Shown: positions 7,859 to 12,939 of the stretch, piece by piece
How positions within the stretch are numbered: the first letter of the stretch is position 1
How the letters are laid out: the number at the start of each line of letters is the position of its first letter
Notes under the pieces: generated by a model
Told to the model about the DNA's origin: nothing
Seen by the model: the letters and a program-made list of their open reading frames with translations, nothing else
The model's database searches: none
NCBI GenBank assembly: GCA_048940645.1
Contig: JBHLOI010000055.1
Coordinates: 1 to 23,093 of the forward strand
Direction: 5' to 3'
From: Promethearchaeota archaeon
Lineage (GTDB): Archaea; Asgardarchaeota; Lokiarchaeia; Sigyniarchaeales; SOKP01
DNA: 23,093 nucleotides
Translations under genes and position numbers: made by a program

Positions 7859-9361
7859 TTATTCTTTTTGTGTTTCTAATATAATTGGTTTACATTTTTT
7901 TCTTTTGGAGAGCGCTATCCTCTCAAGAAGACCTTGTCCCGGTTTAACTTCTTTCAAATCTTGGCATTCAATCAAACCAGCATCAATCGCTCCTTTAAAA
8001 ATTTCTTCTCCCTCTTTTGAACGTGTTATTACAGAAGAATAACCACCTTGTGAGCCAATGGAACCTACTGAAATATCTGCATAGTCTGAGGTGAGATCCT
8101 CACAATAATGACAGTTATCTCGTGCATATGATTGAACTTCTTTCAAATCAACTGCCATTTCTTCACCCGATTTTAAATTAATTATGAATTTACCCTTATC
8201 TATATTCATCTTTGTTAATTCATTTATATCTTGGTTAAATTTATCCTTCGTCAATTTTATGATATTCGCATAAGAAAAGGATTCCATACAGAACAAGCCA
8301 ATTTTATATTTAATATTTTTGAAGAAGGGGAGTCCACTTGGAAATAAGGCTCCCTTTTCAATAGCTTTCATCATACAAGGAACACCTACGACTGCAATCT
8401 TATTATATTTCTTTGCTTGATCTATAATTTTTAATGAGGGGGCATTGGCATATTTTGTACCCCCTGTTTTGTATAAATCCTTTACGTTATCTATAATAAT
8501 TGGTTCTGGTCTCCATAAATCGCTTGAATGTTGCACTGCTATTATCGCATCTACTAGTTTATTCTCTAATAAATATTCTAATAAAGATGTTACAATGCCT
8601 CCATCTTGACGCACTTTCTTAATTTCATCTTTAGTTGTTGTTCCTGTATATGCATTAATATAACCTCCTATTTTTTCGGAATAAGTTAGTGATTTATCTA
8701 GTTTTTTAATACTTTGATATGCTTGATCGATAGAAAAGGAGCGAGGACATACTGTAAAACATAAACCACATTTCATACAAATCTTATCATCAATTTCAAG
8801 TTTATCTGCTGTTACTTCTATTGCATTAACTGGGCATACAGAAGAACACCACCCACAATAACAACAGACTCCTGAATCGAATACTATTGAAACTGGTTCA
8901 AAATAATGTTCAATAAAATCATGTGGCACCTCTTTTACTTGATATCTATAGAAATATTCCTTTTCTTCGACTTCTTTTTCTTCCCCCTTTACTTTTTTTA
9001 TTACTTTTTTTGTTTTAATTTCAACTTGTTCTTCAACATATCCTTGCTCCTTTAAATAAATAACGTCTCGGATTACATTATCAGCTGGAAAAGTTTTAAT
9101 AATTTTAGCAATTTCCTCTAAAAATAATGATTTTTTACCTCTTAGTTGATCTAAGACTAATTTGCGTTCAGTTTCTGCATCGATCATAGTATCTAGAATT
9201 TCATAGAATTCTTGCTCAGAATATTTCCCAGTTTTTAAAACTTCTTCTTTTGCTTCAAAAAATGATCTTACTTGGAAATTTTCAGAAGCTTTGTATGTTG
9301 CTTCTAATAATTGCTTAGGAGAAATTCCACTGAACAATTCATTATTTACTATTTGAACCAT
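7859..9361 (-). CDS. FrhB-family protein with ~155-aa N-terminal helical/winged-helix-like extension
   Basis: CCYCGWCSSVCP, CMKCGLCFTVCP, QDGGIVT, GTKY, VGVPC, IGLFCMESF and CHYCEDLTSDYADISVGSIGS. Confidence 0.9.
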   Translation of the reverse strand: MVQIVNNELFSGISPKQLLEATYKASENFQVRSFFEAKEEVLKTGKYSEQEFYEILDTMIDAETERKLVLDQLRGKKSLFLEEIAKIIKTFPADNVIRDVIYLKEQGYVEEQVEIKTKKVIKKVKGEEKEVEEKEYFYRYQVKEVPHDFIEHYFEPVSIVFDSGVCCYCGWCSSVCPVNAIEVTADKLEIDDKICMKCGLCFTVCPRSFSIDQAYQSIKKLDKSLTYSEKIGGYINAYTGTTTKDEIKKVRQDGGIVTSLLEYLLENKLVDAIIAVQHSSDLWRPEPIIIDNVKDLYKTGGTKYANAPSLKIIDQAKKYNKIAVVGVPCMMKAIEKGALFPSGLPFFKNIKYKIGLFCMESFSYANIIKLTKDKFNQDINELTKMNIDKGKFIINLKSGEEMAVDLKEVQSYARDNCHYCEDLTSDYADISVGSIGSQGGYSSVITRSKEGEEIFKGAIDAGLIECQDLKEVKPGQGLLERIALSKRKKCKPIILETQKE

Positions 9362-9410
9362 ATCTTATTTCTATCCTTAACTAAAAATTTTAATTATTAA
9401 TTAATTTAAA

Positions 9411-9482
9411 AACCCCCCCTTTGCGAGGCAAGTCACCTTAAAACTAAAATTTTATTTTAAGATTCATTCTACGGGGGTAGTT
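9411..9482 (-). promoter_or_regulatory. SECIS element, eukaryote/Lokiarchaeia-type (AUGA..AA..GA), overlapping the vhuD stop codon
   Basis: Minus-strand RNA: AACUACCCCC GUAG A AUGA AUCUUAAAAU AAAAUUUUA GUUUUAAGGU GA C UUGC CUCGCAAA GGGGGGGUU. It has a 10-bp helix (9463-9454 with 9435-9444), an apical loop starting AAAA, a tandem GA/AG core, and lower helices GUAG:UUGC and AACU-CCCCC:GGGGGGGUU. Confidence 0.85.
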
Positions 9483-9922
9483 ACTCCTTTTTTTTTAATA
9501 GATTTCATATCTATGGTATTAATCGGATTGGGTCCAGTCCGCCTTATTTTTTCAAGAGCGTCTTCAACGCTTTTTACTAATTTTTCAGATTCTGCACCAC
9601 TTAGCCAGTACATATTAACTCTTTGACCTCCAAATCCTCGAGATTCTAAAATTCTATTCGCCAAATCTACATGTCTTTGGGCTGTATAATTACCATTTTT
9701 AAATTGACATTCATCAGGTCTTCATCCAACAACCATAACACCATCAGCTCCAGATTTAATGGTATATAAAATATGCTTCACATCAATCCTGCCAGTACAC
9801 TTAACTTTAATTATTTTAACTGACGGTGTATACTTTAAACGAGAAACTCCAGCCAAATCAGCAGCACTATAACCTCACTTTAAACAAGCAAACATAATAA
9901 CTTTAAAGTTATAATCTTCCAT
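9464..9922 (-). CDS. vhuD: Selenoprotein VhuD/MvhD, 152 aa, Sec at residues 16 and 67
   Basis: ATG 9922 with GGAGG upstream. Translates as MEDYNFKVIMFACLK-U-GYSAADLAGVSRLKY..VKCTGRID..GADGVMVVG-U-RPDECQF. TGA at 9875-9877 and 9722-9724 align with CNWC and GCHIGDC of the Cys paralogue at 1902..2339. Confidence 0.93.
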
Positions 9923-12258: not shown

Positions 12259-12939
12259 GTGATTTTTTTGACTATAAGCTTTTATTATTTCCAATATCTT
12301 AATTATTTTGCACTTGTTTACACAACAATTCCATCAATAATTACAGCCATCTTTATGGTAATTTTAAATATTTTCATATTGATTTCCAGTAAGACTTTAC
12401 GTGAAGATATTCAAAGGACACGTCTTTTAAAGAGTGCTGCGATTATAAACATTATTTTTAGCATCTTACCATTAACACTTCCATCATTCGCATTCTCATC
12501 TCTAACCGAAATAGAGAAAATAATTGTAGTTGGTTATTTAGTATTTCTTGGATTGGCTGGATCCTTACCATTTTTTATAACATATGGACTCTTCTTTTTC
12601 CTTTTCGGTAAGGCTAACCAAGAAGAGTATGGTAGTTTTCTAAAAATTGGTGGGATTCTCTGGATGGTGTCTTTTGGATTTTCTTTACTAACTCTAAGTG
12701 GATTAATAGACAGTATCATATACATCTTAATTGGGGCTCCACCAACCTTTGTAATAACTTATTGGACTAGATTGCTTTTTATTATTATTGAATTAAATGG
12801 TTTTGTGTTACTACTAATCCATAGTATTAAAAATAAGAATAAGAATCTAATGATAGCCGGTATATTAAGATTTGTTGCTTTTATTACAGTATTCTTATAT
12901 CCACTTTTCGCTAACTACATTTATGATTTATTCCTCTAA
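12259..12939 (+). CDS. Hypothetical multi-pass membrane protein
   Basis: 226-aa ORF with about 6-7 hydrophobic segments and no recognised motif. Confidence 0.7.
   Translation: MIFLTISFYYFQYLNYFALVYTTIPSIITAIFMVILNIFILISSKTLREDIQRTRLLKSAAIINIIFSILPLTLPSFAFSSLTEIEKIIVVGYLVFLGLAGSLPFFITYGLFFFLFGKANQEEYGSFLKIGGILWMVSFGFSLLTLSGLIDSIIYILIGAPPTFVITYWTRLLFIIIELNGFVLLLIHSIKNKNKNLMIAGILRFVAFITVFLYPLFANYIYDLFL

Follow-up and report, generated by a model that had tools for sequence, protein, structure and literature searches.

A predicted lokiSECIS element with the vhuD stop codon in its AUGA core, and the placing of stop codons beside it in related hdrA-vhuD bicistrons

How can one UGA codon end a reading frame when the other in-frame UGAs of the same mRNA are predicted to specify selenocysteine (Sec)? 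The question is raised by two neighboring genes, hdrA and vhuD (also named mvhD), on the minus strand of the window (the whole stretch of DNA that was analyzed, 23,093 nucleotides). The second of these genes ends at a UGA that also makes up the last three letters of the AUGA core of a predicted SECIS element (Table 1). The initial annotation of this DNA held that a ribosome reaching this UGA must unwind the SECIS, that the UGA cannot be recoded for that reason, and that the overlap of stop codon and core would be a built-in way of telling a stop UGA from a Sec UGA. The letters and coordinates that it gave for the end of vhuD (CCC GUA GAA UGA, for a C-terminus of ..TTPVE), for the AUGA and for the 3' GA of the core are correct.

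The two genes form a bicistron in which vhuD starts 8 nt past the hdrA stop codon. The hdrA product has Fer4 and FAD/pyridine-nucleotide oxidoreductase domains (Pfam), and that of vhuD is an MvhD/FlpD protein (Pfam FlpD PF02662, E 6.4e-43). Counting of in-frame UGAs gives four in hdrA and two in vhuD, in agreement with the six Sec codons that had been proposed to be served by this SECIS, and all of them are located 5' of the element at distances of 257-2359 nt. The covariance model used to search for the element has a single match in the hdrA-vhuD locus, 3' of vhuD, which amounts to one SECIS per bicistron. A tRNA-Sec gene with anticodon UCA is present in the same genome (G000:C101:14409-14501). 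Further along the same strand, a gene for a CCG-domain (HdrD/HdrB-like) protein (6742-5447, minus) most likely ends at UGA 5458-5456, 8 nt ahead of the next ATG and about 4 kb 3' of the SECIS. This UGA stop is consistent with a SECIS whose action is limited to UGAs located 5' of it, or with separate transcripts.

Table 1. Coordinates of the hdrA-vhuD bicistron and of the parts of its predicted SECIS element
Feature	Position	Strand	Details
hdrA	11871-9931	minus	646 codons; four in-frame UGA (translated with TGA = U)
hdrA predicted Sec UGA codons	11826-11824, 11727-11725, 11652-11650, 11277-11275	minus
hdrA stop codon UAA	9933-9931	minus
vhuD/mvhD coding sequence	9922-9464	minus	152 aa; start codon ATG at 9922-9920
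vhuD predicted Sec UGA codons	9877-9875, 9724-9722	minus
vhuD stop codon UGA	9466-9464	minus
Helix I, 5' strand CCCCC	9477-9473	minus	within vhuD Thr-Pro codons (..TTPVE); partner 9417-9413
5' internal loop GUAGA	9472-9468	minus	contains UAG in another frame
SECIS core AUGA	9467-9464	minus	last A of GAA plus the vhuD stop UGA
Helix II, 5' strand AUCUUAAAA	9463-9455	minus	9 nt; partner 9443-9435
Apical loop UAAAAUUUUAG	9454-9444	minus	11 nt; A run first, invariant G last
Helix II, 3' strand UUUUAAGGU	9443-9435	minus
3' core GA	9434-9433	minus	followed by a conserved C (GAC, 9434-9432)
Side hairpin CCU-CGCAA-AGG	9428-9418	minus	3' side of the junction; loop contains GC
Helix I, 3' strand GGGGG	9417-9413	minus	last five Gs of the G7 run
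U5 run	9412-9408	minus	adjoins the 3' end of helix I

The whole element spans 9478-9412 on the minus strand and would fold into a three-way junction, made up of a closing helix I between the last sense codons of vhuD and the G run, the AUGA/GA core with helix II, and a side hairpin. The lower stem had been described as CCCCC pairing with a G7 run. The pairing with the last sense codons holds and covaries among relatives, but only five of the seven Gs belong to it: the G7 run (9419-9413) is split, with two Gs closing the side hairpin and the other five (9417-9413) pairing with CCCCC. Helix II, given as 10 bp in the initial annotation, is shortened to 9 bp by comparison within the family. Its proposed tenth pair, U9454-G9444, is not conserved and was rejected, the G being invariant in 73/73 orthologues as a base of the loop while its partner varies. 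Inspection of 9478-9412 shows that helix II is almost all A-U, with one C-G pair and two G.U pairs. The core would be compatible with a kink-turn, with the GA of AUGA opposite the 3' GA and an adjacent pair that is often U.U. The helix II pair nearest the core is non-Watson-Crick, mostly U.U, in 33/73 orthologues, and a non-standard first pair beside the core is what a kink-turn-like core would allow.

Folding of the single sequence does return the helices in its minimum free energy (MFE) structure. The energy itself is ordinary (-19 kcal/mol, z = -0.75, with 48/200 shuffles folding as well), so that folding energy alone is no evidence for a SECIS. Rfam searches of the whole window at the gathering threshold, and of 9250-9650 at E<=10, give only chance-level matches and none to a SECIS family, the eukaryotic RF00031 (SECIS_1) being without a match even at the looser cutoff. 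The description of the element as a eukaryote-type SECIS stands for its AUGA/AA/GA signature and its succession of helix I, internal loop and helix II, but not for membership in that Rfam family. The case for the structure rests on comparison. The sample for it consists of 77 orthologous hdrA-vhuD loci out of 100 same-family genomes, with vhuD identities of 57-94%; these orthologues are related by descent and counts made among them are not independent. The 9-bp/11-nt form of helix II and apical loop is found at 73 of the 77 loci. The other four (L085-L088), all of one genus and with vhuD identities of 57-61%, have an extra stem in the apical region and thus a longer upper part, and share the same lower parts, retaining helix I (CCCCCAU/AUGGGGG) and the side hairpin.

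Among the 73 orthologues of the common form, the columns that never vary are the AUGA, three adenines of the loop (AAA), the last G of the loop and the A of the 3' GA. This GA is present as either GA or AA in every orthologue, with the change from G to A in a minority, and the C that follows is at least 90% conserved. In a MAFFT alignment of these orthologues that was not fitted to any structure, 86.1% of cells pair in the three-helix structure versus 41-58% in slid controls, and 15 of the 19 pairs show compensatory changes; the observed values were reached in 0/500 shuffles. The model-fitted alignment of all 77 loci has 90.4% of cells paired, as compared with 44-58% in controls. A set of 10 SECIS elements from different genes of this same genome, whose helix sequences are unrelated, fits the same structure, with 90.8% of cells paired (35-50% when slid) and compensatory changes in 19/19 pairs, in an alignment that was fitted to the model and so favors the structure. 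In all three of these alignments, compensatory changes are found in each of the three helices.

All six pairs of helix I are compensatory, both in the orthologues and in the own-genome set; the helix is part of the constrained MFE structure of 71/73 orthologues, and its 5' strands pair better with their own than with foreign 3' strands (0/5000 permutations). For helix II, 8/9 pairs are compensatory in the orthologue alignment. The side hairpin has 82.5% of its cells paired in the unfitted alignment, and 4/4 of its pairs are compensatory in the 10 own-genome elements. An alternative register of this hairpin with a GNRA tetraloop was rejected, as it pairs only 60.6% of cells versus 82.5%. RNAalifold on the MAFFT alignment recovered helix II only, because indels misalign the strands of helix I and of the side hairpin; the register of these two was settled by the named structure, the covariance model and constrained folds of each sequence. 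In the comparative data the side hairpin and helix I are present together, which speaks against a switch to a mutually exclusive alternative hairpin in the 3' half of the element.

The features of the element are those of the lokiSECIS described by Mariotti et al. 2016 (Mol Biol Evol 33:2441, PMC4989117), which is defined by AUGA, a 9-bp stem, an 11-nt loop that begins with A and ends with G, and GA/AA, all of which are found here. As in that study, where one element past hdrA-vhuD serves up to six UGAs over ~2 kb, there is a single element past vhuD, and the gene pair has in-frame UGAs at Cys positions. The GA/AA and GAC/AAC motifs were also described there (PMC4989117). In addition, the element agrees with the Asgard eSECIS-like type I of Huang, Xiao and Zhang 2024 (ISME J 18:wrae111, PMC11227280): its core, upper stem and loop are within the ranges of that model (GA_[G/A]A core, upper stem of 7-15 bp, apical loop of 8-20 nt), and hdrA and frhD/vhuD were likewise reported to have one element in common. 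The initial annotation left open whether the overlap of stop and core was new. It had already been published in both studies: in Mariotti et al. the AUGA of the VhuU.1 lokiSECIS doubles as stop codon, and Huang et al. describe overlaps between SECIS elements and the ends of coding sequences as frequent (PMC4989117, PMC11227280). The difference is one of gene, the published case of AUGA as stop being VhuU.1, whereas in the family studied here vhuD stops most often at the core UGA (47/73).

Neither the sense-codon helix I nor the side hairpin is mentioned in the main text of Mariotti et al. (PMC4989117), and the text of Huang et al. (PMC11227280) has an internal loop and lower stem without conserved nucleotides and describes no third hairpin or three-way junction. 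As given in the main texts of PMC4989117, PMC11227280 and PMC13188914, the models consist of core, upper stem, loop and a generic lower stem; a side hairpin or three-way junction is absent from these main texts and may be drawn in the supplement of Mariotti et al. 2016. Eukaryotic SECIS elements (RF00031) share with the element the AUGA...GA core, which is a kink-turn motif of tandem G.A pairs, as well as an apical loop with unpaired adenines and a layout in which an internal loop separates helix I from helix II; they too act from a distance on UGAs located upstream. They differ in a helix II of ~12-15 bp as compared with 9 bp here, in their location in a long 3' UTR, whereas the element here adjoins or overlaps the coding sequence, and in lacking the extra side hairpin at the junction. 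Euryarchaeal SECIS elements (Methanococcales, Methanopyrus) are likewise located 3' of the coding sequence and act at a distance, and those of vhuD also have AUGA and GAC/AAC (Mariotti et al. 2016, PMC4989117); however, on inspection of 9478-9412 the element has neither the euryarchaeal GAA_A bulge nor, in its upper stem, the three consecutive G/C pairs of that type. In Methanococcus, a SECIS of the other archaeal type remained functional when it was placed directly against the coding region, in constructs without a UGA next to it (PMC9622424).

If the overlap were what distinguishes the stop UGA from the Sec UGAs, relatives should keep it. We determined the position of the first in-frame stop in 73 vhuD orthologues, counting from the A of AUGA. 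The UGA of the core (+1) terminates 47/73; the other 26 terminate 3-18 nt ahead of the core, with UAG at -4 (11/73), UAA at -15 to -18 (12/73), UGA at -3 (2/73) or UAA at -6 (1/73), and AUGA is unchanged in 73/73, hence invariant both where it is the stop and where it is not. The alignment of vhuD 3' ends that the initial annotation had called for thus gives an invariant AUGA and a covarying helix, but not a core UGA that is always the stop. One-nucleotide indels between close relatives toggle the stop between the core UGA and the UAG of the 5' internal loop (..UAGAAUGA), by which the latter has become the vhuD stop in 11 orthologues. On a quick maximum-likelihood (ML) tree of upstream coding DNA, the stop state has changed at least 11 times, as compared with 20-22 changes needed for shuffled labels. 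These results contradict the overlap as a required discriminator between stop and Sec. The overlap is common and probably old, yet dispensable, since 26/73 orthologues stop earlier and the state has changed so often.

What the comparison of these sequences indicates instead is that the conserved feature is the nearness of the vhuD stop to the SECIS and not the overlap itself. All orthologue vhuD stops are located within 18 nt of the core, and the stop is UGA in 49/73, in every case in the core or at most 3 nt from it. By comparison, the 77 hdrA stops, 435-487 nt upstream of the core, are UAA in 65 and UAG in 12 with no UGA, and UGA terminates 12.7% of long ORFs in the genome as background. In the orthologous bicistrons UGA is thus tolerated as a stop only near the SECIS. 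Other genes of the same genome have UGA stops at -6 and -21 from their SECIS cores, and a vhuU-like gene has one at +1. These data agree with the earlier claim that recoding is barred for a UGA located at the SECIS, UGA being the stop of vhuD in 49/73 orthologues versus 0/77 for hdrA. Since the same reasoning holds for stops a few bases upstream, nearness rather than exact overlap would be the operative property. These counts reproduce in a larger sample a rule stated by Mariotti et al. 2016 (PMC4989117), in whose data hdrA always ends with UAA or UAG, vhuD stops are diverse and include UGA, and UGA stops beside a lokiSECIS are frequent. The same authors argued from proximity that a minimal distance is needed and that nearness precludes recoding, citing a minimal UGA-SECIS distance that has been measured only in eukaryotes (PMC4989117); the argument is also made by Huang et al. 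2024 (PMC11227280).

We consider it very probable that the element is a lokiSECIS of type I, the eukaryote-like SECIS of Asgard archaea of the Lokiarchaeia type, that it forms a three-way junction and recodes six UGAs whose meaning depends on position, and that its overlap with the stop is opportunistic. As the sole SECIS of the hdrA-vhuD bicistron, it would direct Sec insertion at the six UGAs upstream. Because the element adjoins the end of the reading frame, the first in-frame stop falls within it, and here this stop is supplied by the AUGA core. By the time the core UGA occupies its A site, a ribosome would already have melted helix I and would cover the core together with the first part of helix II; with the SECIS melted, the mRNA would have none left for recruiting the Sec elongation complex, and a release factor would read the core UGA. 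The meaning of UGA would thus be set by position, as Sec far upstream of the SECIS and as stop at the SECIS, because the ribosome at the core UGA has unwound the element, and the exact overlap would be a by-product of a compact layout and not a required device. The covariance model matches of this genome that were inspected adjoin the 3' ends of ORFs with in-frame UGA. The locus presents in compact form one codon with two meanings in a single mRNA, and it is one more example of an arrangement that, like its explanation, has been published before, adding numbers (47/73 core stops, 0/77 UGA stops in hdrA, repeated stop switching) and no new principle.

That the overlap was selected as a safeguard marking the core UGA as a stop seems to us unlikely. 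It would account for the core UGA being the stop in 47/73 orthologues when random phasing would place it in frame in about a third, and the vhuU-like gene of the same genome has the same overlap. An in-frame UAA also follows the vhuD UGA four codons on (9454-9452, +13), and such a UAA at +10 or +13, three to four codons on, in 42 of the 47 core-stop orthologues resembles the fail-safe of tandem stops. This UAA could act as a second stop in reserve, or it may simply come with the conserved sequence of helix II, to which it belongs in any frame. The counts are inflated by shared descent, however, and a safeguard is hard to reconcile with the 26/73 orthologues that terminate 3-18 nt earlier (by UAG, UAA or UGA) beside an unchanged SECIS, with a state that flips between close relatives by 1-nt indels and for which the quick tree requires 11 changes or more, or with UGA stops at -3, -6 and -21, by which nearness suffices. 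The same downstream UAA, together with the fact that the remaining UGAs of the mRNA are Sec codons, would allow the core UGA to be a seventh Sec with VhuD ending at 9454-9452, which we regard as very improbable. The tail so added would be encoded by helix II and be lost in all 26 orthologues with an earlier stop; past the FlpD domain, the C-terminal tail is in any case variable in length and sequence among orthologues, and a ribosome at the core UGA must have melted the only SECIS.

A last alternative concerns the element as such: the hairpins and the U5 run could be merely a transcription terminator or stabilizer of the hdrA-vhuD mRNA, with a likeness to SECIS that is due to chance. A G-rich stem followed by U5 would suit a terminator, and 39/73 orthologues have a run of at least five Ts within 40 nt past the GA. 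But 34/73 are without a T5 run, and a terminator would not call for the (near) invariance of the AUGA, the loop adenines, the last loop G and the GA/AA, nor for the same model finding the element, with unrelated helix sequences, past other UGA-containing ORFs of the genome. We give this reading almost no credence, and a role in termination may coexist with the SECIS role without replacing it. The U5 run may prolong helix I, or it may be an oligo-U signal for archaeal transcription termination, at which the hdrA-vhuD transcript may end ahead of the frhB-like genes.

Going beyond the lokiSECIS reading preferred above, it is conceivable, though we hold it rather doubtful, that the three-way junction, as opposed to a two-helix eukaryote-like hairpin, is itself of consequence, with a functional side hairpin that could dock an Asgard SECIS-binding factor and with termination resetting the SECIS. 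In that case the sole SECIS of a bicistron with six Sec codons would be stripped and reset by each ribosome that terminates on vhuD, which would couple termination to recoding upstream. These archaea have no known SBP2 (Mariotti et al. 2016, PMC4989117). The closing helix, which lies in the coding sequence, and the side hairpin, which is missing from the published models as given in their main texts, may be useful to specialists, and should enter SECIS search models and the hunt for the missing archaeal SECIS-binding protein. Closing helix I is present in all 10 own-genome elements and in all 77 vhuD elements, and so is a side hairpin (CC..GC..GG) that lies past GAC and ahead of the helix I 3' strand.

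Several of the other elements in the genome adjoin ORFs with distinctive Sec motifs. On contig C94, near 43636, the vhuU-like gene (..DCULSCAAH..) ends at the UGA of its SECIS AUGA, as in the published VhuU.1. A SECIS on C57, near 33010, is located past an ORF with vicinal Sec-Sec (..GCUU..), and another on C120, near 11733, past an ORF with GGGUGC whose UGA stop is 6 nt ahead of the core. On C11, near 63404, the element follows a short zinc-ribbon-like ORF that ends with ..KU just ahead of a UAA. The SECIS on C121 (core near 12467, minus strand) adjoins the gene for a small predicted membrane protein with L-U-G-U-G-G-U, in which three UGAs fall within six codons, and which is possibly a multi-Sec selenoprotein outside the five classical families.
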